Origin: a virus
UHGV virus genome: UHGV-1912862
Length of the DNA stretch: 17,842 bases
Strand: one strand, 5' to 3'
The first letter of the stretch is position 1; each line of letters starts with the position of its first letter. The notes beneath the pieces were generated by a model that worked only from the letters and a program-made list of their open reading frames with translations, was not told the DNA's origin and ran no database searches. The translations under genes and the position numbers were made by a program. Shown one piece after another: positions 1 to 17,842 of this stretch.

Positions 1-2400
1 GAAGCCTTCGGGAAGCTGACCACAGACCCGACGTCGGGGCTGACGGCGATGGCGCGCCAGTTCCATAACGTGACGGCGGAGCAGATTGCGTATGTTGCTC
101 AGTTGCAGCGTTCCGGCGATGAAGCCGGGGCATTGCAGGCGGCGAACGAGGCCGCAACGAAAGGGTTTGATGACCAGACCCGCCGCCTGAAAGAGAACAT
201 GGGCACGCTGGAGACCTGGGCAGACAGGACTGCGCGGGCATTCAAATCCATGTGGGATGCGGTGCTGGATATTGGTCGTCCTGATACCGCGCAGGAGATG
301 CTGATTAAGGCAGAGGCTGCGTTTAAGAAAGCAGACGACATCTGGAATCTGCGCAAGGATGATTATTTTGTTAACGATGAAGCGCGGGCGCGTTACTGGG
401 ATGACCGTGAAAAGGCCCGTCTTGCGCTTGAAGCCGCCCGAAAGAAGGCTGAGCAGCAGACTCAACAGGACAAAAATGCGCAGCAGCAGAGCGATACCGA
501 AGCGTCACGGCTGAAATATACCGAAGAGGCGCAGAAGGCTTACGAACGCCTGCAGACACCGCTGGAGAAATATACCGCCCGCCAGGAGGAACTGAATAAG
601 GCACTGAAAGACGGAAAAATCCTGCAGGCAGATTACAACACGCTGATGTCGGCGGCGAAAAAGGACTATGAAGCGACGCTGAAAAAGCCGAAGCAGTCCG
701 GCGTGAAAGTGTCTGCGGGCGATCGTCAGGAAGACAGTGCTCATGCTGCCCTGCTGACGCTTCAGGCAGAACTCCGGACACTGGAGAAGCATGCCGGAGC
801 GAATGAGAAAATCAGCCAGCAGCGCCGGGATTTGNNNNNNNNNNGCTGCAGACGCCGCTGGAGAAATATACCGCCCGTCAGGAAGAACTGAATAAGGCCC
901 TGAAAGACGGAAAAATCCTGCAGGCAGATTACAACACGCTGATGGCGGCGGCGAAAAAGGACTATGAAGCGACACTGAAAAAGCCGAAACAGTCCGGCGT
1001 GAAGGTGTCTGCAGGAGAGCGTCAGGAAGACAGTGCTCATGCCGCCCTGCTGACGCTTCAGGCAGAACTCCGGACGCTGGAGAAGCATGCCGGAGCGAAT
1101 GAGAAAATCAGCCAGCAGCGCCGGGATTTGTGGAAGGCGGAAAGTCAGTTCGCGGTACTGGAGGAGGCGGCGCAACGTCGCCAGCTGTCCGCACAGGAGA
1201 AATCCCTGCTGGCGCATAAAGATGAGACGCTGGAGTACAAACGCCAGCTGGCTGCACTTGGCGATAAGGTCACGTATCAGGAGCACCTGAACGCGCTGGC
1301 GCAGCAGGCGGATAAATTCGCACAGCAGCAACGGGCAAAACGGGCCGCCATTGATGCGAAAAGCCGGGGGCTGACTGACCGGCAGGCAGCGAAGGAAGCC
1401 ACGGAACAGCGCCTGAAGGAGGAGTATGGCGATAATCCGCTGGCGCTGAATAACGTCATGTCAGAGCAGAAAAAGACCTGGGCGGCTGAAGACCAGCTTC
1501 GCGGGAACTGGATGGCAGGCCTGAAGTCCGGCTGGAGTGAGTGGGAAGAGAGCGCCACGGANNNNNNNNNNAAAAAACCGGGGGCTGACTGACCGGCAGG
1601 CAGCGCGGGAAGCCACGGAACAGCGCCTGAAGGAACAGTATGGCGATAATTCTCTGGCGCTGAATAACGTCATGTCAGAGCAGAAAAAGACCTGGGCGGC
1701 TGAAGGCCAGCTTCGCGGGAGCTGGATGGCAGGCCTGAAGTCCGGCTGGAGTGAGTGGGAAGAGAGCGCCACGGACAGTATGTCGCAGGTAAAAAGTGCA
1801 GCCACGCAGACCTTTGATGGCATTGCACAGAATATGGCGGCGATGCTGACCGGCAGTGAGCAGAACTGGCGCAGCTTCACCCGTTCCGTGCTGTCCATGA
1901 TGACAGAAATTCTGCTTAAGCAGGCAATGGTGGGGATTGTCGGGAGTATCGGCAGCGTCATTGGCGGTGCTGCCGGTGGTGGCGCATCAGTGTCAGGCGG
2001 TACAGCCATTCAGGCCGCTGCGGCGAAATTCCATTTTGCGACCGGAGGATTTACGGGAACCGGCGGCAAATATGAGCCAGCGGGGATTGTTCACCGTGGT
2101 GAATTTGTCTTCACGAAGGAGGCAACCAGCCGGATTGGCGTAGGAAATCTTTACCGGCTGATGCGCGGCTATGCCACCGGTGGTTATGTCGGTGGCACCG
2201 GAAGTCCGGCGCAAATGCGGCGTTCAGAGGGTATCAGATTTGAGCAGAACAACAACGTGGTGATTCAGAACGACGGTACGAATGGTCTGCCAGGTCCACA
2301 GATGCTGAAGGCAGTGTATGACATGGCCCGCAAGGGTGCCCGTGATGAAATTCAGGCACAGATGCGCGATGGTGGTCTGTTCTCCGGAGGTGGACGATGA
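1..2400 (+). CDS. H: Tail tape-measure protein (lambda gpH-like), 5'-truncated by the window; frame broken by scaffold joins at 835-844 and 1562-1571
   Basis: Frame is open from nt 1. Translation is Ala/Gln/Lys-rich and coiled-coil-like with a Gly-rich segment (GGAAGGGASVSGG). Stop TGA 2398-2400 overlaps the M start (ATGA). Sits directly upstream of M-L-K-I-J. Confidence 0.9.
835..844. other. Scaffold join (10 N); 845-1130 re-reads about 549-834
   Basis: N-run followed by a near-identical copy with substitutions. Confidence 0.85.
1562..1571. other. Scaffold join (10 N); about 1574-1775 re-reads about 1360-1561
   Basis: N-run followed by a near-identical copy with substitutions. Confidence 0.85.
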
Positions 2401-2726
2401 AGACCTTCCGCTGGAAAGTGAAACCCGGTATGGATGTGGCTTCGGCCCCTTCCGTCAGGAAAGTGTGCTTTGGTGATGGCTATTCCCAGCGAGCGCCTGC
2501 CGGGCTGAATGCCGACCTGAAAACGTACAGCGTGACGCTTTCTGTTCCCCGTTGGGAGGCCACGGCGCTGGAGTCGTTTCTGGCTGAGCACGGGGGCTGG
2601 AAAGCCTTTCTGTGGACGCCGCCTTATGAGTGGCGGCAGATAAAGGTGACCTGCGCAAAATGGTCGTCGCGGGTCAGTATGCTGCGTGTTGAGTTCAGCG
2701 CAGAGTTTGAACAGGTGGTGAACTGA
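2397..2726 (+). CDS. M: Tail tip protein M (lambda gpM-like), 109 aa
   Basis: ORF MKTFRWKVKPGMDVASAP...EFEQVVN. GGAGG Shine-Dalgarno at 2383-2387. Stop overlaps L start (TGATG). Length and position match lambda M. Confidence 0.92.
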   Translation: MKTFRWKVKPGMDVASAPSVRKVCFGDGYSQRAPAGLNADLKTYSVTLSVPRWEATALESFLAEHGGWKAFLWTPPYEWRQIKVTCAKWSSRVSMLRVEFSAEFEQVVN

Positions 2727-3680
2727 TGCAGAATATCCGGCAGGAAACACTGAATGAATGCACCCGTGCGGAGCAGTCGGCCAGCGNNNNNNNNNNGATA
2801 TCCGGCAGGAAACACTGAATGAATGCACCCGTGCGGAGCAGTCGGCCAGCGTGGTGCTCTGGGAAATCGACCTGACAGAGGTCGGTGGAGAACGTTATTT
2901 TTTCTGTAATGAGCAGAACGAAAAAGGTGAGCCGGTCACCTGGCAGGGGCGACAGTATCAGCCGTATCCCATTCAGGGGAGCGGTTTTGAACTGAATGGC
3001 AAAGGCACCAGTACGCGCCCCACGCTGACGGTTTCTAACCTGTACGGTATGGTCACCGGGATGGCGGAAGATATGCAGAGTCTGGTCGGCGGAACGGTGG
3101 TCCGGCGTAAGGTTTACGCCCGTTTTCTGGATGCGGTGAACTTCGTCAACGGAAACAGTTACGCCGATCCGGAGCAGGAGGTGATCAGCCGCTGGCGCAT
3201 TGAGCAGTGCAGCGAACTGAGCGCGGTGAGTGCCTCCTTTGTACTGTCCACGCCGACGGAAACGGATGGCGCTGTTTTTCCGGGACGTATCATGCTGGCC
3301 AACACCTGCACCTGGACCTATNNNNNNNNNNCTTCGTCAACGGAAACAGCGACGCCGATCCGGAGCAGGAGGTGATCAGTCGCTGGCGCATCGAGCAGTG
3401 CAGCGAACTGAGCGCGGTCAGTGCCTCCTTTGTACTGTCCACACCGACGGAAACGGACGGCGCTGTTTTTCCGGGACGTATCATGCTGGCCAACACCTGC
3501 ACCTGGACCTATCGCGGTGACGAGTGCGGTTATAGCGGTCCGGCTGTCGCGGATGAATATGACCAGCCAACGTCCGATATCACGAAGGATAAATGCAGCA
3601 AATGCCTGAGCGGTTGTAAGTTCCGCAATAACGTCGGCAACTTTGGCGGCTTCCTTTCCATTAACAAACTTTCGCAGTAA
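2726..3680 (+). CDS. L: Tail tip protein L (lambda gpL-like); contains two scaffold joins (2787-2796, 3322-3331) with re-read blocks, true length about 232 aa
   Basis: Translation MQNIRQETLNECTRAEQSASVVLWEIDLTEVGGERYFFCNEQ... ending with a Cys cluster (RGDECGY...DKCSKCLSGCKF) as in gpL. After subtracting the re-reads the length is about 700 nt. Confidence 0.92.
2787..2796. other. Scaffold join (10 N); 2798-2851 re-reads 2733-2786
   Basis: N-run followed by a near-identical copy. Confidence 0.85.
3322..3331. other. Scaffold join (10 N); 3332-3512 re-reads 3141-3321
   Basis: N-run followed by a near-identical copy with substitutions. Confidence 0.85.
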
Positions 3681-3684
3681 TCCC

Positions 3685-4428
3685 ATGACAGAGACAGAAT
3701 CAGCGATTCTGGCGCACGCCCGGCGATGTGCGCCAGCGGAGTCGTGCGGCTTCGTGGTAAGCACGCCGGAGGGGGAAAGATATTTCCCCTGCGTGAATAT
3801 CTCCGGTGAGCCGGAGGCGTATTTCCGTATGTCGCCGGAAGACTGGCTGCAGGCAGAAATGCAGGGTGAGATTGTGGCGCTGGTCCACAGCCACCCCGGT
3901 GGTCTGCCCTGGCTGAGTGAGGCCGACCGGCGGCTGCAGGTGCAGAGTGATTTGCCGTGGTGGCTGGTCTGCCGGGGGACGATTCATAAGTTCCGCTGTG
4001 TGCCGCATCTCACCGGGCGGCGCTTTGAGCACGGTGTGACGGACTGTTACACACTGTTCCGGGATGCTTATCATCTGGCGGGGATTGAGATGCCGGACTT
4101 TCATCGTGAGGATGACTGGTGGCGTAACGGCCAGAATCTCTATCTGGATAATCTGGAGGCCACAGGGCTGTATCAGGTGCCGTTGTCATCAGCACAACCG
4201 GGCGATGTGCTGCTGTGCTGTTTTGGTTCATCGGTGCCGAATCATGCCGCCATTTACTGTGGTGATGGCGAGCTGCTGCACCATATTCCTGAACAACTGA
4301 GCAAACGAGAGAGGTACACCGACAAATGGCAGCGACGCACACACACCCTCTGGCGTCACCGGGCATGGCGCGCATCTGCCTTTACGGGGATTTACAACGA
4401 TTTGGCCGCCGCATCGACCTTCGTGTGA
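3685..4428 (+). CDS. K: Tail tip assembly protein K (JAMM/MPN plus NlpC/P60-like), 247 aa; alternative internal start at 3829 would give 199 aa
   Basis: ATG at 3685 (MTETESAILAHARR...). JAMM motif HSHPGGLPWLSEAD (HxHx7Sx2D) and downstream Cys/His consistent with NlpC/P60. Its 3' end overlaps the I start out of frame by about 100 nt. Confidence 0.9.
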   Translation: MTETESAILAHARRCAPAESCGFVVSTPEGERYFPCVNISGEPEAYFRMSPEDWLQAEMQGEIVALVHSHPGGLPWLSEADRRLQVQSDLPWWLVCRGTIHKFRCVPHLTGRRFEHGVTDCYTLFRDAYHLAGIEMPDFHREDDWWRNGQNLYLDNLEATGLYQVPLSSAQPGDVLLCCFGSSVPNHAAIYCGDGELLHHIPEQLSKRERYTDKWQRRTHTLWRHRAWRASAFTGIYNDLAAASTFV

Positions 4429-5155
4429 AAACGGGGGCTGAAGCCATCCGGGCACTGGCCACACAGCTCCCGGCGTTTCGTCAGAAACTGTGCGACGGCT
4501 GGTATCAGGTACGGATTGCCGGGCGGGACGTCAGCACGTCCGGGTTAACGGCGCAGTTACATGAGACTCTGCCTGATGGCGCTGTGATTCATATTGTTNN
4601 NNNNNNNNCGCACTGGCCACACAGCTCCCGGCGTTTCGTCAGAAACTGAGCGACGGCTGGTATCAGGTACGGATTGCCGGGCAGGATGTCAGCACGTCCG
4701 GATTAACGGCGCAGTTACATGAGACTCTGCCTGATGGCGCTGTGATTCATATTGTTCCCAGAGTCGCCGGGGCCAAGTCAGGTGGTGTATTCCAGATTGT
4801 CCTGGGAGCAGCCGCCATTGCCGGATCATTCTTTACCGCCGGAGCCACCCTTGCAGCATGGGGGGCAGCCATTGGGGCCGGTGGTATGACCGGCATCCTG
4901 TTTTCTCTCGGTGCCAGTATGGTGCTCGGTGGTGTGGCGCAGATGCTGGCACCGAAAGCCCGGACGCCCACAGCGACCAGCACGGATAACGGTAAGCAGA
5001 ACACGTATTTCTCTTCACTGGATAACATGGTTGCCCAGGGCAATGTTCTGCCTGTTCTGTACGGTGAAATGCGCGTGGGGTCACGCGTGGTTTCTCAGGA
5101 GATCAGCACGGCAGACGAAGGGGATGGTGGTCAGGTTGTGGTGATTGGTCGCTGA
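4326..5155 (+). CDS. I: Tail tip assembly protein I (lambda gpI-like); contains scaffold join 4599-4608 and a re-read, true length about 222 aa
   Basis: MAATHTHPLASPGMARICLYGDLQRFGRRIDLRVKTGAEAIRALATQLPAFRQK... followed by a Gly/Ala-rich hydrophobic C-terminal half ...GDGGQVVVIGR. Stop TGA 5153-5155. Confidence 0.9.
4599..4608. other. Scaffold join (10 N); 4609-4756 re-reads 4451-4598
   Basis: N-run followed by a near-identical copy with substitutions. Confidence 0.85.
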
Positions 5156-5173
5156 TGCAAAATGTTTTATGTG

Positions 5174-5199
5174 AAACCGCCTCCGGGCGGTTTTGTCGT
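5174..5199 (+). promoter_or_regulatory. Perfect 8-bp hairpin (AAACCGCC-tccg-GGCGGTTT) followed by a T-rich tract in the I-J intergenic spacer; possible attenuator or RNA-stability element
   Basis: Inverted repeat read directly from the sequence. A second copy with the same stem and loop tgcg lies at 6064-6089 in the re-read block. Confidence 0.35.
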
Positions 5200-5215
5200 T
5201 TATGGAGCGTGAGGA

Positions 5216-5665
5216 ATGGGTAAAGGCAGCAGTAAGGGGCATACCCCGCGCGAAGCAAAGGACAACCTGAAGTCCACGCAGCTGCTGAGTGTGATCGATG
5301 CCATCAGTGAAGGGCCGATTGAAGGTCCGGTGGATGGATTAAAAAGCGTGCTGCTGAACAGTACGCCGGTGCTGGACAGTGAGGGGAATGCCAATATATC
5401 CGGCGTCACGGTGGTGTTCCGGGCAGGTGAGCAGGAGCAGACTCCGCCGGAGGGGGTTGAATCCTCCGGTTCCGAGACGGTGCTGGGTACGGAAGTGAAA
5501 TATGACACGCCGATCACCCGCACCATCACGTCGGCAAACATCGACCGTCTGCGCTTTACCTTCGGTGTGCAGGCACTGGTGGAAACCACCTCAAAGGGGG
5601 ACAGGAATCCATCGGAAGTCCGCCTGCTGGTTCAGATACAGCGTAACGGTGGCTGGGTGACGGAA
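5216..5665 (+). CDS. J: Host-specificity protein J, 5' fragment (first allele copy, cut by scaffold join 5666-5675)
   Basis: MGKGSSKGHTPREAKDNLKSTQLLSVIDAISEGPIEGPVDGLK... is about 96 percent identical to 6106-6555. GAGG Shine-Dalgarno at 5211-5214. Confidence 0.8.
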
Positions 5666-11193: not shown

Positions 11194-11730
11194 ATGCGTA
11201 AATTATGTGCTGTTATTCTGTCCACAGTAGTCTGGCTGGTCGCCGCTGGTACGCCAGCGAGCGCAGCAGAGCATCAGTCCACACTAAGCGCCGGGTATCT
11301 TCAGACCCATACTGATATGCCCGGCAACGATGACCTGAAGGGCATTAACGTGAAATACCGTTATGAATTTACGGACACGCTGGGGCTGGTGACGTCATTC
11401 AGTTATGCCAATGCCAAAGATGAGCAAAAAACGCATTACAGCGATACCCGCTGGCATGAAGATTCAGTGCGTAACCGCTGGTTCAGCATGATGGCGGGGC
11501 CGTCTGTACGCGTGAATGAATGGTTCAGTGCTTATGCGATGGCAGGTGTGGCTTACAGCCGTGTTTCGACGTTCTCCGGGGATTATCTCCGCGTAACTGA
11601 CAACAAGGGGAAAACGCACGATGTGCTGACCGGAAGTGATGACGATCGCCACAGCAACACGTCTCTGGCGTGGGGAGCTGGCGTGCAGTTTAACCCGACC
11701 GAATCCGTGGCCATTGATATTGCTTATGAA
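11194..11730 (+). CDS. lom: Lom-family outer membrane protein (Ail/OmpX/Lom beta-barrel), allele copy A, 3' end lost at scaffold join 11731-11740
   Basis: MRKLCAVILSTVVWLVAAGTPASAAEHQSTLSAGYLQTHTDMPGNDDLKGINVKYRYEFTDTLG... Signal peptide plus beta-strand pattern. GAGAGG Shine-Dalgarno at 11183-11188. Confidence 0.8.
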
Positions 11731-11740
11731 NNNNNNNNNN
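11731..11740. other. Scaffold join (10 N); 11741-12332 re-reads about 11140-11730 (terminator plus lom)
   Basis: N-run followed by a diverged copy; the lom signal-peptide region differs markedly. Confidence 0.85.
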
Positions 11741-11747
11741 CAATACG

Positions 11748-11771
11748 GGCGCCAGAAATGGCGCCTTTTTT
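11748..11771 (+). terminator. Second copy of the post-J terminator (GGCGCCA-gaaa-TGGCGCC then T6) inside the re-read block
   Basis: Same hairpin as 11147-11172 with G-C/A-T compensatory changes in the stem. Confidence 0.5.
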
Positions 11772-11795
11772 ATTGCAGAAAAGCGAGAGGTAATT

Positions 11796-12395
11796 ATGCG
11801 TAAAGTTTATGCAGCCATTTTGTCCGCAGCCATCTGTCTGGCCGTATCCGGTGCGCCTGCATGGGCATCTGAGCAGCAGGCCACACTGAGCGCAGGGTAT
11901 CTTCATGCCCGTACGAACGCTCCCGGCAGCGATAATCTGAACGGGATTAACGTGAAATACCGTTATGAGTTTACGGACACGCTGGGGCTGATTACGTCAT
12001 TCAGTTATGCCAACGCTGAAGATGAGCAAAAAACGCATTACAGCGATACCCGCTGGCATGAGGATTCCGTGCGTAACCGCTGGTTCAGCGTGATGGCGGG
12101 ACCGTCTGTGCGCGTGAATGAATGGTTCAGCGCGTATGCGATGGCGGGGGTGGCTTACAGCCGTGTTTCGACCTTCTCCGGGGATTATCTGCAGGTGACC
12201 GACAACAAGGGGAAAACGCACGATGTGCTGACCGGAAGTGATGACGGTCGCCACAGCAACACGTCTCTGGCGTGGGGGGCTGGCGTGCAGTTTAACCCGA
12301 CCGAATCCGTGGCCATTGATATTGCTTATGAAGGCTCCGGCAGTGGCGACTGGCGCACTGACGGTTTCATCGTGGGTGTCGGTTATAAATTCTGA
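11796..12395 (+). CDS. lom: Lom-family outer membrane protein, allele copy B, complete, 199 aa
   Basis: MRKVYAAILSAAICLAVSGAPAWASEQQATLSAGYLHARTNAPGSDNLNGINVKYRYEFTDTLGLITSFSYANAEDEQKTHYSDTRWHEDSVRNRWF...GFIVGVGYKF. C-terminal aromatic residue typical of OMP barrels. Confidence 0.9.
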   Translation: MRKVYAAILSAAICLAVSGAPAWASEQQATLSAGYLHARTNAPGSDNLNGINVKYRYEFTDTLGLITSFSYANAEDEQKTHYSDTRWHEDSVRNRWFSVMAGPSVRVNEWFSAYAMAGVAYSRVSTFSGDYLQVTDNKGKTHDVLTGSDDGRHSNTSLAWGAGVQFNPTESVAIDIAYEGSGSGDWRTDGFIVGVGYKF

Positions 12396-12422
12396 TTAGC
12401 CAGGTAACACAGTGTTATGACA

Positions 12423-12449
12423 GCCCGCCGGTTCAGGCGGGCTTTTTTG
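12423..12449 (+). terminator. Rho-independent terminator after lom (GCCCGCC-ggttcag-GGCGGGC then T6)
   Basis: 7-bp GC stem and T-run, directly followed by GGAG (12451-12454) and the stf ATG at 12460. Confidence 0.65.
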
Positions 12450-12459
12450 TGGAGTGGAT

Positions 12460-14817
12460 ATGGCAGCAGTAAAAATCTCAGGTGTGCTGAAAGATGGTGC
12501 GGGAAAACCAATACAGAACTGCACTATTCAACTGAAGGCAAAGCGTAACAGCACCACTGTACTGGTGAACACGGTGGCCTCTGAAAATCCGGATGAAGCC
12601 GGGCGTTACAGCATGGACGTTGAGTATGGCCAGTATAGCGTTATCCTGCTGGTTGAAGGTTTTCCGCCTTCACATGCCGGGATCATTACCGTCTATGAAG
12701 GTTCCAGACCAGGTACGCTGAATGATTTTCTCGGTGCCATGACGGAAGATGATGTCATGCCGGAGGCATTGCGTCGTTTTGAGGCAATGGTGGAAGAAGC
12801 GGCACGCAACGCCGAAGCCGCCTCTCAGAGCGCAGCGGTGGCAAAGAAATCCGAAACTGCAGCGGCATCATCGAAGAACGCGGCGAAAACCTCAGAAACG
12901 AATGCAGCTAACAGCGCACAGGCGGCAGCGTCCTCGCAGACTGCATCGGCAAACTCCGCGACAGCAGCCAAAAAATCAGAAACCAACGCGAAAAACAGCG
13001 AGACAGCCGCAAAGACGAGCGAAACCAACGCAAAGTCCAGCCAGACGGCAGCGAAGACCAGCGAAACGAATGCCAAAGCCAGTGAAACTGCGGCAAAAAA
13101 CAGCCAGGTTGCAGCAGCCCAAAGCGAGAGCGCGGCAGCCGGTTCTGCGACTTCAGCAGCTGGATCAGCAACTGCTGCGGCTAACAGCCAGAAAGCTGCG
13201 AAGACGAGTGAAACTAACGCAAAGTCCAGCCAGACGGCAGCGAAGACCAGCGAAACGAATGCCAAAGCCAGCGAAACTGCGGCGAAAAGCAGTCAGGATG
13301 CAGCAGCCGAAAGCGAGAGTGCTGCAGCTGGTTCTGCAACAGCGGCAGCTAATAGCCAAAAAGCTGCAAAAACCAGTGAAACTAACGCAAAGGCGAGCGA
13401 AACAAAAGCAGCAGCCAGCGAGACAGAAGCAACGTCAGCCGCAACAAGAGCAGAGAATGCAGCCCGGATTGCAGAAGATGCCGCTGATCCTGCTTCTGTC
13501 CCTCCGCTTCCTGATATCTGGCTACCCTTGAATGATTCTCTGGAAGCGATAACAGGGTATGCGCCGGGGTATAAAACAATAACCATCGGCAGCGATGAAA
13601 TCACTGTGCCAGTTAATGGCATATGCCAATTTAGCCGGGCTTCATCTGCAACGTATATTGATAAGTCCGGGCATATTACCGTGGCAGGTAATAACGTTCC
13701 TCGTTTTGAAAAATATGGTTTGCTGATAGAGAATCAGCGAACAAACATGTTCGTAAATAGTTTTAATCCTGATGCGTGGAATAAAAGCGGTGGTATATCT
13801 GTAACATCATCAACAGATGAATTTGAGTTTAAATATGGACGTTTCACGGTAGGAAGCGATATAGCAGGAACGACAACAGGGAGAAATATATGCACAGTTG
13901 CTGGTAACAAAGGCATAGATGTGACTGGCGATGATCAGTACAGTAAAGGTCCGTATGTTACCGCGTCGTTCAGGGTAAGAAGTGATCTCAATGTTCGCGC
14001 ACGTATCCGTTTTGAACGGTATAACTCGGAAGGATACACCTTCCTTTGCGACGCCTATTTGTCATTACAGACCCATGAACTACAAATTACTGGTGGCAAT
14101 GCCCAGCTATTAACAGCAAACTTTGAAATCGACCCTGGTAGTGGATGGATATATTTTCAGGCAACACTGAAATGTCTGCCAGAATGGGGAATGGTTGGTA
14201 CGCAGCTGCAAATTGCAGCCGACAGAGCTGTGGGAGCTTTTGCAACAGGTGACTGGATAGAAGTAACCACCCCGCAATTCGAGTATGGTGCTTGTGCAAC
14301 TTCCTTCATCATAACGACAACAGAGCCAGCGACTCGTGCATCAGATTTATGTAAATTTCCGCTGATGAAAAATATGTATACCATGCCTTTTACGTTCATG
14401 GTGGAAGTCCATAAAAACTGGTTTATTTCTCATAATGCTGCACCGCGTGTCATTGATTCAGAAAATCACCAGTCCGGAGGCCCATTTATTATGGGGTTTG
14501 GTTCTTCTGGAACTATCAGTCAGGACGGTTATTCGTATTGCGATATAGGCGGGGCTAACCGACGTGTATATGAATCATGCGGAGTAAGGGATCTCGTTAT
14601 GGGATTCAGGGTTAAGGCTGACGGCATGACATGCTCATTTGCAAATAAGCATATAAGCGCTGAAACAAAAACAGTATGGAAATATATTCGTGAAGCAGCC
14701 GTGATTCGTATCGGGGGGCAAACGACGACAGGATTACGACACCTTAATGGTCATATAAAAAACCTCCGTTTCTGGAACAGAGCATTGTCAGATACGCAGC
14801 TTAAGGAATACGTATAA
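12460..14817 (+). CDS. stf: Side tail fibre protein Stf: conserved N-terminal attachment domain, Ala/Ser/Thr-rich repeat shaft, AT-rich C-terminal receptor-binding domain with a LamG-like terminal motif
   Basis: From ATG 12460: MAAVKISGVLKDGAGKPIQNCTIQLKAKRNSTTVLVNTVASENPDEAGRYSMDVEYGQYSVIL... (lambdoid Stf N-terminus). Repeats KTSETNAK(A/S)S(E/Q)TAAK. C-terminus ...GHIKNLRFWNRALSDTQLKEYV. The ORF-track start at 12454 is GTG; I prefer ATG 12460. Confidence 0.85.
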   Translation: MAAVKISGVLKDGAGKPIQNCTIQLKAKRNSTTVLVNTVASENPDEAGRYSMDVEYGQYSVILLVEGFPPSHAGIITVYEGSRPGTLNDFLGAMTEDDVMPEALRRFEAMVEEAARNAEAASQSAAVAKKSETAAASSKNAAKTSETNAANSAQAAASSQTASANSATAAKKSETNAKNSETAAKTSETNAKSSQTAAKTSETNAKASETAAKNSQVAAAQSESAAAGSATSAAGSATAAANSQKAAKTSETNAKSSQTAAKTSETNAKASETAAKSSQDAAAESESAAAGSATAAANSQKAAKTSETNAKASETKAAASETEATSAATRAENAARIAEDAADPASVPPLPDIWLPLNDSLEAITGYAPGYKTITIGSDEITVPVNGICQFSRASSATYIDKSGHITVAGNNVPRFEKYGLLIENQRTNMFVNSFNPDAWNKSGGISVTSSTDEFEFKYGRFTVGSDIAGTTTGRNICTVAGNKGIDVTGDDQYSKGPYVTASFRVRSDLNVRARIRFERYNSEGYTFLCDAYLSLQTHELQITGGNAQLLTANFEIDPGSGWIYFQATLKCLPEWGMVGTQLQIAADRAVGAFATGDWIEVTTPQFEYGACATSFIITTTEPATRASDLCKFPLMKNMYTMPFTFMVEVHKNWFISHNAAPRVIDSENHQSGGPFIMGFGSSGTISQDGYSYCDIGGANRRVYESCGVRDLVMGFRVKADGMTCSFANKHISAETKTVWKYIREAAVIRIGGQTTTGLRHLNGHIKNLRFWNRALSDTQLKEYV
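13031..13400 (+). repeat. Imperfect in-frame tandem repeats (about 170-190 nt units) within the stf shaft
   Basis: caaagtccagccagacggcagcgaagaccagcgaaacgaatgccaaagcc recurs at 13031 and 13220. Shorter KTSETNAK motifs span about 12890-13400. Confidence 0.6.
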
Positions 14818-15086
14818 TGCGAGATATAACATTACGATTCGATAACAGAGAACAGTTTAACGCAATTGTATATGACAGTGGCCTGTTCAGTCTTGAAGAA
14901 GAAAACGGGGTTCTTGTTGATGTTATTGGCTGCATTATCGATTACGAGGAGCCAGAAAACGAAAGATGTACAGGCATTGATCGCGGTGGTTTTTTCGTAA
15001 ACATGAGGATTGTTGATAGCAGTAAAAACATATCTTCTTTAATGCCTTTCATTACGACAGATCAGCATGTAAGGACATGGGCTTAA
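14817..15086 (+). CDS. Hypothetical small acidic protein (89 aa), translationally coupled to stf (TAATG overlap)
   Basis: ATG 14817 overlaps the stf stop. AT-rich like its neighbours. No motif recognised: MRDITLRFDNREQFNAIVYDSGLFSLEEENGVLVDVIGCIIDYEEPENERC... Confidence 0.5.
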   Translation: MRDITLRFDNREQFNAIVYDSGLFSLEEENGVLVDVIGCIIDYEEPENERCTGIDRGGFFVNMRIVDSSKNISSLMPFITTDQHVRTWA

Positions 15087-15098
15087 TGGAGTAAGACA

Positions 15099-16139
15099 AT
15101 GGTTACAAAAACAGTAATTCCTGATGACATCAAAACGCTAAAATCCGATGTTAGTAAACTAAAAACTGATCAAGGAAGCTATGCAACAAAATCATATGTA
15201 GACAATAAAACAACATGGAATAGTTATTGCAATGTAATCTATGATCAAAAGGCATTGCCGACCACTGGAACTATATTTAGCGGTAAGATTCACTTGTCAA
15301 ATAAGACAGGAGAAACCGAAAACGCTTATAGTGAGATGTACACCAGAAAAAATATTGACGGTACAAAAGATACAATGACAAGGATTGTCACACACAATGG
15401 AACAAAAGGTATCTTTTGGGATTTTAGCGATCTTTACGGCGGAACATTAATTTTTCCAGGCAGTGATGGTTACCTTAAGATGGGGAACTGTCTCATGTCG
15501 TATGGTGTGCGGGGAAGTAACGCGCTTATTAAGTTTGACTGCACAGACACATTACAAATCAAATATGCCAATCATGGGTCAACCATGACATTAAACACAC
15601 AGGGGACCGCTCATTCTGGCGCTACTACTAGTTTGTGGGGTAACTCTACCCGTCCGGTTGTATATGAAGTTGGTGCTGATGGTGGCGCGTATATGTTCTA
15701 TGCGCAGAAAAATACCGATAACACCTATATGTTAAGCGTTAATGGTGCATGTCATGCCACCGCATTTAACCAGCATTCCGACCGGGATCTGAAAGACAAC
15801 ATTCAGGTGATCGATAATGCAACCGACCGCATCCGTAAAATGAACGGCTATACATACACGCTTAAAGAAAACGGTATGCCCTATGCAGGTGTCATTGCAC
15901 AGGAAGCTCTGGAAGCAATCCCAGAAGTTGTCGGTTCCGCAATGAAATATCAGGACGGTGCAAGCGGATCGGAAGGTGAAGAAGGTGAACGTTATTACAC
16001 AGTAGATTATTCTGGTGTTACTGGCTTGCTTGTTCAGGTAGCCAGAGAGTCAGACGACAGAATAACAGTACTGGAAGAAGAAAACGCAGAATTAAGGCAA
16101 AGATTATCTGCAATTGAGGCGACGCTTGCGTCTAAATAA
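15099..16139 (+). CDS. Tail fibre/tailspike-like protein with C-terminal intramolecular chaperone (peptidase S74 / endosialidase-chaperone-type) domain, 346 aa
   Basis: GGAGTAAG Shine-Dalgarno before ATG 15099. C-terminal region ...NQHSDRDLKDNIQVIDNATDRIRKMNGYTYTLKE..YAGVIAQEALEAIPEVV...LEEENAELRQRLSAIEATL carries the SDxxLK and G(V/F)IAQE hallmarks plus a terminal coiled coil. AT-rich. Confidence 0.75.
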   Translation: MVTKTVIPDDIKTLKSDVSKLKTDQGSYATKSYVDNKTTWNSYCNVIYDQKALPTTGTIFSGKIHLSNKTGETENAYSEMYTRKNIDGTKDTMTRIVTHNGTKGIFWDFSDLYGGTLIFPGSDGYLKMGNCLMSYGVRGSNALIKFDCTDTLQIKYANHGSTMTLNTQGTAHSGATTSLWGNSTRPVVYEVGADGGAYMFYAQKNTDNTYMLSVNGACHATAFNQHSDRDLKDNIQVIDNATDRIRKMNGYTYTLKENGMPYAGVIAQEALEAIPEVVGSAMKYQDGASGSEGEEGERYYTVDYSGVTGLLVQVARESDDRITVLEEENAELRQRLSAIEATLASK

Positions 16140-16180
16140 TATTAAGGGCTATGCGCCCCGTTTTATTGGGTAGGATGAAA

Positions 16181-16474
16181 ATGGATATAACACCTTTTCT
16201 TCATGCGCTTTGTGCTGTGGCTGCGCAGGTACTGGTTGGTCTTTTTACCGGAAACTGGGCTTACGGGGCGATAGCCGGTTGTACATTCTTCATTGCGCGG
16301 GAACACACCCAGGCAGAATATCGCTGGATTGAAATGTTCGGGCATTGCAAGCGGATTAACATGCCGTGGTGGGGCGGTTTTGATCCGCGTGTTTGGGATG
16401 TGGCAAGCCTGATAGATTTTGCTGTGCCGGTGGTGGCGTGTCTGCTGGTCTGGCTGTTGGTTAATCGTGGGTGA
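16181..16474 (+). CDS. Small polytopic inner-membrane protein (about 97 aa, three hydrophobic segments), function unknown
   Basis: AGGA at 16172-16175 then ATG 16181 (the ORF track begins at 16151). Hydrophobic stretches FLHALCAVAAQVLVGLFTG, AYGAIAGCTFFIA, LIDFAVPVVACLLVWLLV. G+C is host-like, unlike the upstream cassette. Confidence 0.5.
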   Translation: MDITPFLHALCAVAAQVLVGLFTGNWAYGAIAGCTFFIAREHTQAEYRWIEMFGHCKRINMPWWGGFDPRVWDVASLIDFAVPVVACLLVWLLVNRG

Positions 16475-16484
16475 AAAAAGGTGA

Positions 16485-16604
16485 GCTGTATATGCAACGG
16501 AGGAAGAAATCTCGTTGCTGGAAGCATGGAAAAAGTATCGGGTATTGCTGAACCGTGTTGATACGTCAACTGCACAGGATATTGAATGGCCAGCACTGCC
16601 GTAG
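16485..16604 (+). pseudogene. tfa: 3' remnant of a tail fibre assembly gene (tfa); only the last ~40 codons remain
   Basis: Frame-3 translation [39 protein letters not shown]-stop matches the conserved Tfa C-terminus (..[33 protein letters not shown]..). An in-frame stop lies at 16482-16484 and there is no start codon. Confidence 0.7.
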
Positions 16605-16701
16605 GGTAAAACATATAAATTCTATAATTAGATGTATCTTTCCATTTACGGCAAGGAAGGGGGCTTGGAAGACGTAAAGCATCTCACACCGAGATTATTT
16701 T

Positions 16702-17292
16702 TTATATGTCAGGTGTCTGAAGTTTTGCTTTGGCTCTTAAAATGGTTTGCCGCGAGGTTTTGAATTCCCGGGCAATGGCACTTATACTTACACCTGACTT
16801 AATTCGTTCGAATACCACCTGTTTCTGTTCTTCATTTAACACAGGTGGTCGACCAAAACGTTTCCCTGCGCCGCGGGCTCTTACTATCCCGGAATGAGTG
16901 CGTTCAAGTAAAAGGTCTCGTTCAAATTCAGCGACTGCTGAAATTACTTGCATCATCATTTTTCCTGTTGGACTGGTCAGGTCAATGCCCCCCAATGCTA
17001 AGCAATGCACTCTGATACCTGTTTCGGTCAGTTGTTCCACTGTTTTCCTGATATCCATTGCATTACAACCAAGGCGATCCAGTTTTGTCACAATCAATTG
17101 ATCACCACATTTCAGGCGAGCAAGCAACCGGTTAAAACCAGGACGCTCACTGGTTGCTGCTGAGCCGCTAATGTGTTCTTCGATTATTTGCTGAGATTTG
17201 ATGTTAAAACCTGCACTTTCGATTTCCCGGCGTTGATTTTCGGTGGTCTGATCCAGCGTTGATATCCGACAGTAAGCAAAAATTCGAGACAT
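16702..17292 (-). CDS. pin: Serine recombinase of the DNA-invertase family (Pin/Gin/Hin-like), 196 aa
   Basis: [20 protein letters not shown]... has the resolvase/invertase N-terminal catalytic motif (Ser11) and a C-terminal HTH ([21 protein letters not shown]). Position after stf/tfa and length 196 aa match the PinR/PinQ arrangement of Rac/Qin prophages as I recall it. Confidence 0.88.
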
Positions 17293-17608
17293 AGTGAGAC
17301 TCTATACGAAATTGGTGTTCATATCATAATGCATCTCAGAAAATAATTATGATTATTTTTGTGCATATTTGTATGTACACGTTCGAAAATAAACGAATGC
17401 GTATGCAACCCCGTAATTTTGGTGAGACCCAAAATCGATTTTGTGAAAAATGGCTTTAACTCGGTTTGTTTTTCGAGTTCCGGGAGGACTCAAGGAAGAA
17501 GAATAGTGTTGCGTGTTATTTTAACCAGATTTCAAGTTGTTTGGTCGTGGAAAAGTGGAGCAAAATGTTGTTAAAGTGGAAAAATGATAAAAAAGTAAGT
17601 TTATTATA

Positions 17609-17842
17609 TTACATTTTACCATTTAAATTTTGGTTGTCTTTAAGAACTGATATCGCTGTTTGTAATAATTCTTTGTTATCCAGCCATGATTTTTTCTTTA
17701 TGTTTCCTTCAATGTAATCAAGCAATGTTCTGGTATTGATAGGTCTTCCCTGTTTTGCTACTTCCACTACAGCATCCCCTAGGATAATTCTTACTTCAGG
17801 AAGCTGCGCAGGGAACCACTTTAGGGTGTCTTTTGATTTCAT
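17609..17842 (-). CDS. Small protein (77 aa), YdfK/YnaE-like by synteny with pin
   Basis: Complete ORF MKSKDTLKWFPAQLPEVRIILGDAVVEVAKQGRPINTRTLLDYIEG...; the start codon coincides with the window edge. AT-rich. The identity rests on recalled Rac/Qin gene order (pin next to ynaE/ydfK), not on a search. Confidence 0.5.
   Translation of the reverse strand: MKSKDTLKWFPAQLPEVRIILGDAVVEVAKQGRPINTRTLLDYIEGNIKKKSWLDNKELLQTAISVLKDNQNLNGKM

Follow-up and report, generated by a model that had tools for sequence, protein, structure and literature searches.

The pin gene of the virus genome UHGV-1912862 is likely to be the surviving tnpR of a decayed Tn3-family transposon, and to be left without a recombination site of its own rather than serving as a fibre switch. 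The whole stretch of DNA that has been analysed, 17,842 nucleotides in length, is referred to here as the window. A first-pass annotation had described positions 16605-17608, which comprise the recombinase gene and both of its intergenic flanks, as a Pin-type invertase with no evident invertible fibre segment, and had set it in the frame of the fibre invertases Gin, Cin, and Pin. That frame does not hold, since the encoded protein shows 36–38% identity to Gin and PinE versus 77–86% to the resolvases of Tn3-family elements. The analogy with Mu, P1, and e14 does not hold either, and relics of a Tn3-type terminal repeat and of a res site flank pin.

Gene content and prophage context

The open reading frame map and a Pfam scan identify the window as the tail end of a lambda-like prophage, in which the following genes have been assigned.

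J region, then lom, + strand (Pfam and open reading frame map)
12454-14817, + strand: stf, side tail fibre, with a phage_tail_N domain
Between stf and the S74 fibre, + strand: open reading frame of 89 aa
15099-16139, + strand: second fibre, with a Peptidase_S74 self-cleaving chaperone domain (Pfam)
Between the S74 fibre and the tfa remnant, + strand: open reading frame of 107 aa, without a Pfam match
16493-16605, + strand: 3' remnant (37 codons) of a tfaQ/tfaR-type tail-fibre assembly gene, marking the left end of the cassette that Rac and Qin also carry
16702-17292, - strand: pin (PinQ/PinR allele), an intact small serine recombinase of 196 aa (Resolvase, 1e-36; HTH_7, 4e-11)
17609-17842, - strand: ydfK/ynaE-type gene ('cold shock protein YdfK' in the annotation), which belongs to the conserved cassette and lies outside the transposon relic

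The ydfK/ynaE-type reading frame is intact, with its first base at 17842, where the window ends. Several complete E. coli genomes match the final 3 kb at 100%. In E. coli MS20659, the matching prophage is adjoined by prfC, and RefSeq annotates the same genes there. This prophage looks complete over the part compared, with head-decoration, major capsid, tail, and fibre genes. The RefSeq label for the tfa stretch is 'tail fiber assembly protein, incomplete, missing N-terminus'. The window becomes homologous to Rac and Qin within tfa, of which only the last 37 codons are left; the usual C-terminus of stf and most of tfa have been replaced by the S74-type fibre, which has a chaperone domain of its own, and by the 107-aa reading frame. 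A PADLOC search matches none of Pin, YdfK, and the two small reading frames to a defence system, and Rfam finds nothing in 16000-17842.

The PinQ/PinR cassette

The window recombinase is an allele of pinQ/pinR, a gene well known from lambda-like prophages of E. coli. Starting at 16494 and continuing to its end, the window is 99% identical to tfaR-pinR-ynaE of the K-12 prophage Rac and to tfaQ-pinQ-ydfK of Qin, and the pin DNA itself is 99% identical to K-12 pinR and pinQ. With an identity of at least 98% and the tfa-pin-ydfK/ynaE cassette around it, the gene is a member of the PinQ/PinR group. The PinQ (Qin) and PinR (Rac) proteins are 98–99% identical to the window protein, are encoded in the same orientation, and carry the same Cys76. 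Their loci also have the same flanks, namely the 3' end of tfa, the terminal repeat relic, the res relic, and ydfK or ynaE, and differ from the window in the upstream fibre module.

The cassette is found at a coverage of at least 80% in 2678 of 5426 complete E. coli genomes, as a single collinear piece in the matches sampled, and its copies are mostly at least 99% identical. The pin gene is therefore an ordinary one, present in about half of the complete E. coli genomes and annotated there as pinQ or pinR. It also occurs in plaque-forming lambdoid phages, including mEp460, 2H10, Turner, and others, where the layout is J-lom-stf-tfa followed by pin and ydfK on the opposite strand. Rac, Qin, mEp460, 2H10, and Turner all have a complete tfa and no second fibre set. 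The missing invertible segment is thus the rule for pinQ/pinR and not a peculiarity of the window. Since the same stf-tfa-pin-ydfK layout without an alternative fibre is shared by Rac, Qin, and the phages, the position of pin beside the fibre genes is most simply explained as the point at which a transposon inserted, and not as belonging to a host-range switch.

Relationship to the Tn3-family resolvases

The enhancer-dependent invertases, namely Gin of Mu, Cin of P1, PinE of e14, and Hin, are likewise small serine recombinases with Resolvase and HTH_7 domains; the recombinational enhancer of this group is bound by Fis and lies in the 5' part of the invertase gene. PinE shares 83% identity with a P1-type Cin and 72% with a Mu-like Gin. 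This high mutual identity, typical of the interchangeable invertases Gin, Cin, Pin, and Hin, is not shared by the window protein, whose identity to PinE is 38% and to Gin 36%. On the other hand, its identity to the TnpR proteins of plasmids and transposons is 77–86%; the relatives in this range are 'recombinase family proteins' from IncF/I/K plasmids and many Enterobacterales, and relatives at 62–70% occur in Methylomonas, Burkholderia, and others. Among solved structures, Gin gives the best match (106 bits, E = 2e-29), and gamma-delta resolvase comes close to it with 83 bits (E = 2e-22).

The genes next to these relatives have also been compared. Homologues from Citrobacter (79%) and Methylomonas (69%) adjoin a full-length Tn3-family transposase that carries DUF4158 and DDE_Tnp_Tn3 domains, with E-values of 1e-138 to 4e-149. 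A match to TnpA lies no more than 4 kb away at 23 homologue loci, while no TnpA similarity has been found in the window or at any Escherichia PinQ/R locus examined. Judged by these comparisons, the window protein descends from the TnpR of a Tn3-family element and not from a Gin-type invertase.

The RefSeq name for the related transposase is 'Tn3 family transposase' and is no more specific. We take the related transposon group to be possibly Tn5403-like; a limited literature search has found neither a sequence or description of Tn5403 nor a matching res type. The plasmid pRM10386-2 (locus L009) carries at 1820-5641 a complete-looking 3.8-kb Tn3-family element with the order IR-tnpA-res-tnpR-IR. 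Its transposase is split into two reading-frame pieces, the element lies between parM and leading-region genes, and the gene table of the plasmid lists the recombinase only.

The TnpR genes of the Tn3-family elements in pRM10386-2, Citrobacter, and Leclercia have in common with the window the register of the res site and the 38-bp terminal repeat after the stop codon, both of which are decayed in the window. The helix-turn-helix region is nearly the same in the plasmid TnpR and the window protein, with conservative changes only. The window differs from these elements in having no transposase, in the decay of the half-sites, in the loss of the left half of site I, and in the replacement of the catalytic Arg by Cys.

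Relics of the terminal repeat and the res site

Both sides of pin carry sequences that can be aligned with parts of such an element.

16659-16696, + strand: decayed 38-bp Tn3-family terminal inverted repeat, with 21 of 29 core matches to GGGGTCCGCTTGGAAAACGGAAATTATCCCACGCTAAG and a 3-bp deletion
17302-17324, - strand: relic of res subsite III, a pair of direct half-sites located between TATGAT, a -10-like sequence, and the pin start
17334-17365, - strand: relic of res subsite II, two weakened inverted half-sites 14 bp apart
17379-17406, - strand: relic of res subsite I (crossover), with the right half weakened (TTTCGAACG) and the left half lost

Intact related elements are bounded by the 38-bp repeat GGGGTCCGCTTGGAAAACGGAAATTATCCCACGCTAAG, which in pRM10386-2 is located directly 3' of the tnpR stop codon. 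In the window, the outer GGGG end of the repeat relic points towards tfa and its inner end lies against the pin stop codon. The local alignment has a z-score of 14.6, and its score is reached by 0 of 300 shuffles. The outer end of this relic is also precisely where the homology to the transposon ends. A second copy of the 38-bp GGGG-type repeat is absent from the window.

Upstream of the homologues, site I, site II, a TATAAT motif, and site III stand at a fixed distance from the start codon at 44 of 44 loci. Site I of the family is the inverted pair TGTCCGAAAC-N6-GTTTCGGACA, site II (TGTCCGAAAG...TTTCGGACA) is an inverted pair with wider spacing, and site III consists of two direct half-sites. 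An arrangement of three subsites that overlaps the promoter in this way is that of a resolvase res site. The stretch 17293-17420 of the window aligns with the res sites of the family with z-scores of 9 to 24, and beyond 17420 the z-score falls to ~0. The subsites have decayed to different degrees. The proximal half-site of subsite III, TTTCGTATA, is still good, with 13.0 bits versus a family mean of 11.5. The half-sites of subsite II score 7.6 and 4.3 bits versus family means of 14.9 and 13.5, and those of subsite I score 7.7 (right) and -13.9 bits (left) versus 13.3 and 11.2. Judged by these scores, the res of the window would be a relic and not a functional res. No second paired site of the TnpR type has been found in the window. 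The promoter and terminator scan shows no terminator and does not single out the position of the conserved TATGAT.

As the simplest history, it is proposed that the ancestor was a lambda-like phage into which a small transposon with the order IR-tnpA-res-tnpR-IR inserted, ~50 bp beyond the end of tfa. The tnpA gene would later have been lost, and one terminal repeat and the res site would have been left behind as decayed relics. With the loss of one half of the crossover subsite, the prophage would have come to possess neither a pair of sites nor even one good site. Given its origin as a transposon resolvase, pin would never have had a fibre segment to flip, and the tail fibres would not be switched by it.

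Two further searches concern the borders of the insertion. The stretch 17421-17620 had been considered, by eye and with MAFFT, as a decayed 5' end of tnpA; local alignment with shuffles gives a z-score of ~0 against four elements, and the idea has therefore been dropped. The empty site, in which the sequence left of the repeat relic would be joined to that right of the res relic, is found in 0 of 5426 E. coli genomes.

Invertible segment and recombination sites

The first-pass annotation had found no inverted alternative fibre gene, and this is borne out, as every real gene in 12454-16605, tfa included, is on the + strand. The - strand open reading frames of this region are antisense only, and none of them has a Pfam match. 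The statement that no convincing 26-bp ix pair is present also stands, with consensus, weight matrix, and inverted-repeat searches all at the level of chance. The palindromic ix consensus gives 0 matches in the whole window when up to 3 mismatches are allowed. A weight matrix for the half-sites has been built from pix and gix, taken from the e14 and Mu sequences, and from hix and cix. With this matrix, the best 26-bp stretch scores 11.2 bits, compared with 30–34 bits for true pix and gix sites, and 11.2 bits is reached by 22% of shuffled windows. The search for inverted-repeat pairs resembling ix sites yields only chance-level pairs in the window. Orphaned, the word used in that annotation, is a fair description, in the sense that there is no adjacent invertible segment and no recognisable pair of sites.

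The gene could have become orphaned as a Gin/Cin/Pin-type fibre invertase whose invertible segment, with alternative fibre ends and tfa genes, was lost by deletion or gave way to the S74 fibre module. Like gin, cin, and pinE, the window gene sits beside tail-fibre genes; it lies directly after them and converges on tfa, as cin does in P1. The truncated tfa also shows that recombination has remodelled this region of the prophage. Compared with Gin, Cin, PinE, and Hin, however, the window is without 26-bp ix (12-2-12) sites, an invertible segment, and alternative fibre or tfa genes, and no ix site or half-site in it rises above chance. The identity of 36–38% falls far outside a family whose members share 72–83%, pin is flanked by transposon terminal repeat and res relics, and Rac, Qin, mEp460, 2H10, and Turner are also without a second fibre set although their tfa is complete. 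An orphaned fibre invertase is already contradicted by these data and is extremely improbable.

Just outside the res relic, at 17416-17445, the window has a perfect palindrome of 14 bp, CAAAATCGATTTTG, and, overlapping with it, the inverted repeat ATTTTGG-N6-CCAAAAT. These palindromes are kept in Rac, Qin, and the 86% branch; they have no partner site in the window, are not called as a terminator, and have no Rfam match. Their loose likeness to a 12-2-12 site raises the idea that the recombinase acts in cis on new sites, such as these palindromes and a distant partner, and thereby inverts or deletes part of the prophage. Against this stand the absence of a partner from the window and the collinearity of the cassette, which is a single aligned piece in the matches sampled and reaches the 80% coverage threshold in all 2678 genomes counted. 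Also, a BLAST survey in PMC12529663 reports inversions only in e14 and none in Rac or Qin. Action in cis on new sites is accordingly given very little probability.

Catalytic residue and selective constraint

One of the catalytic positions of the resolvases is replaced in the window protein.

17065-17067, - strand: TGT codon of Cys76, which aligns with the catalytic R71 of Tn3/gamma-delta resolvase

Cys76 lies in the motif KLDRLG-R and corresponds to the second Arg of DRLGR in Gin; at this position the plasmid TnpR has the codon CGT. The alignments with Gin and gamma-delta resolvase leave no ambiguity here. Cys is found at position 76 in 6 of 6 Escherichia PinQ/R loci and in an 86%-identical branch. 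The other 74 homologue loci comprise 71 with Arg and 3 without a recoverable motif, and the other proteins examined all have Arg. Residues Y7, R9, S11, and R73 are present in the window protein, and the equivalent of Tn3 D36 is Glu throughout the family; the complete catalytic set of Tn3 resolvase (Y6, R8, S10, D36, R68, and R71) is therefore not found. In Tn3 resolvase, the R71A and R71K mutations abolish recombination and result in ~1000-fold lower cleavage, while binding is not abolished (PMC2794168). With Cys in place of the catalytic Arg, strand exchange by the window protein is probably weak or absent.

Two transposon TnpRs compared with each other give a dN/dS ratio of 0.02, and the window gene compared with the plasmid TnpR gives 0.13. 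Within the Cys clade, where 24 of the differences are synonymous and 29 non-synonymous, the ratio is 0.34. These ratios point to a constraint on the Cys-clade protein that is relaxed ~ten-fold yet still present. The ratio of 0.34, together with thousands of intact copies, indicates that some selection persists, and the word relic, as applied to this gene, cannot mean functionless.

The same data bear on the suggestion that pin is a functionless hitch-hiker, which is intact only because the cassette has spread recently with successful lambdoid phages. The sites have decayed, the catalytic residue is gone, and dN/dS has increased from 0.02 to 0.34, all of which would be expected of such a passenger, and since the copies are mostly at least 99% identical, their intactness carries little information. 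However, 29 non-synonymous differences are seen where ~75 would be expected under neutrality (a rough hand estimate that assumes ~3 times as many non-synonymous as synonymous sites). No stop codon or frameshift occurs in the Cys clade across 14% protein divergence, and phenotypes have been published for the deletion of pinQ and of pinR. A gene with no function at all is decidedly unlikely.

For the surviving resolvase proposed here, sequence-specific DNA binding through the almost unchanged helix-turn-helix would be the activity most likely to remain, and the protein may bind the best-preserved subsite beside its own promoter. A role in transcriptional repression has been attributed to PinR in a 2022 preprint. 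A further step would be that PinQ and PinR are resolvases which have lost their catalysis and have been exapted, and which now function by binding DNA and not as recombinases. This is put forward tentatively, as an unlikely proposal. Because their helix-turn-helix is almost unchanged, PinQ and PinR could repress their own promoter. If PinQ and PinR do act by binding alone, they could also occupy the res sites of related Tn3-family transposons that arrive on IncF/I/K plasmids, and might there act as dominant-negative inhibitors of cointegrate resolution and of the expression of tnpA and tnpR.

Reported action in trans on the e14 P segment

Any recombination that the window protein influences would take place in trans, elsewhere in the genome, as has been reported for the e14 P segment of K-12. 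According to Kirigo et al. 2025 (PMC12529663), overproduced PinQ lifts the inversion of the P segment in K-12 from ~30% to 88%, and PinE gives 49%. Deletion of pinQ sensitises K-12 to phage T2, and T2 infection induces pinQ. In a pinE mutant, P is locked in one orientation despite intact pinQ and pinR. Neither a catalytic-serine mutant of PinQ nor an overproduction of PinQ in a pinE deletion has been found in the text covered. The PinQ results argue for a real activity. At the same time, the data fit a non-catalytic modulator as well as an enzyme, and direct catalysis by PinQ is putative. If PinQ works by binding DNA, its occupancy of pix could bias inversion by PinE, which would explain both the 88% plateau and the dependence on pinE, with no cutting by PinQ.

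PinQ/PinR-type proteins may be trans-acting invertases of the 1.8-kb e14 P segment that serve phage defence. The inversion would create a chimeric StfE2 that blocks the adsorption of T2, and the window gene would act likewise wherever an e14-type segment exists. This account of present function, which we regard as possible though rather unlikely, is compatible with a transposon origin and differs from the surviving-resolvase reading on present function only. The 88% inversion and the T2 phenotypes speak for it, together with the absence of an effect without stfP, stfE, or e14 in PMC12529663. Also, the pix half-sites weakly resemble the TnpR-family half-site, with 13 of 18 matches as a pair, which is the level of the site II relic in the window.

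Several observations speak against the trans-invertase account. In PMC12529663 itself, P stays locked in the pinE mutant although pinQ and pinR are intact, and the text covered contains neither a catalytic-serine mutant nor overproduction in a pinE deletion. The 88% plateau reported there is higher than the ~50% expected of a simple invertase, which PinE matches with 49%. The catalytic Arg is replaced by Cys, and the half-sites are spaced by 8 bp in the family crossover site versus 6 bp in pix. The site of e14 also bears on the account, as one genome with a 100% match to window 14800-17842 has a non-e14 prophage at icd.

That genome is MS20659, in which only the icd site (L092, 1290000-1339999; locus 1-19179), the place of e14 in K-12, has been checked. 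The site is occupied by a lambda-like prophage that carries sitABCD and a duplicated 3' fragment of icd; pinE, mcrA, and the P segment are absent there. As a result, the proposed target in trans is not guaranteed to be present alongside the cassette. A preprint on the 'pinR' of the fljAB locus in Salmonella Senftenberg contains no mechanistic information relevant to the present question.

Consequences for annotation

The gene itself was already known as a member of the PinQ/PinR group, and its orphan status had been noted earlier in the literature. Limited literature searches have found no description of the transposon origin, of the terminal repeat and res relics, or of the change from Arg to Cys. 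The useful part of the present analysis is a correction of the label, as 'DNA invertase' is routinely used by analogy with Gin and Pin, and the 2025 paper (PMC12529663) rests a mechanism of phage defence on the invertase reading. The descent from resolvases, the decay of the gene's own sites, and the replaced catalytic Arg give concrete grounds to test whether PinQ/PinR cuts DNA. More generally, a recombinase gene that merely lies beside tail-fibre genes does not imply fibre switching.

Composite sequences and repeats

Some of the homologous proteins are composite. In P0003, P0004, P0006, and P0007, the N-terminal half is of the plasmid TnpR type, with Arg, and the C-terminal half is of the PinQ/R type. 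These proteins are either natural recombinants between a plasmid transposon and a prophage or products of chimeric metagenome assemblies.

The window is itself composite in its left part. Between 835 and 11740 it holds 12 runs of 10 N, and its first 11.7 kb are not one continuous sequence; the pieces separated by these runs overlap when they are mapped to the MS20659 prophage, with an identity that varies from 92.6 to 100%. The stretch 11743-17842 is continuous. The two copies of lom, at 11194-11793 and 11796-12395, are 88.7% identical, and this tandem duplication is an artefact of two overlapping variant pieces. Within stf, the alanine-rich repeat region contains two 168-bp direct repeats, at 12994-13161 and 13183-13350, which are 88.7% identical when cross-matched to the MS20659 copy, and the long antisense open reading frames that run over these repeats are by-products of composition.
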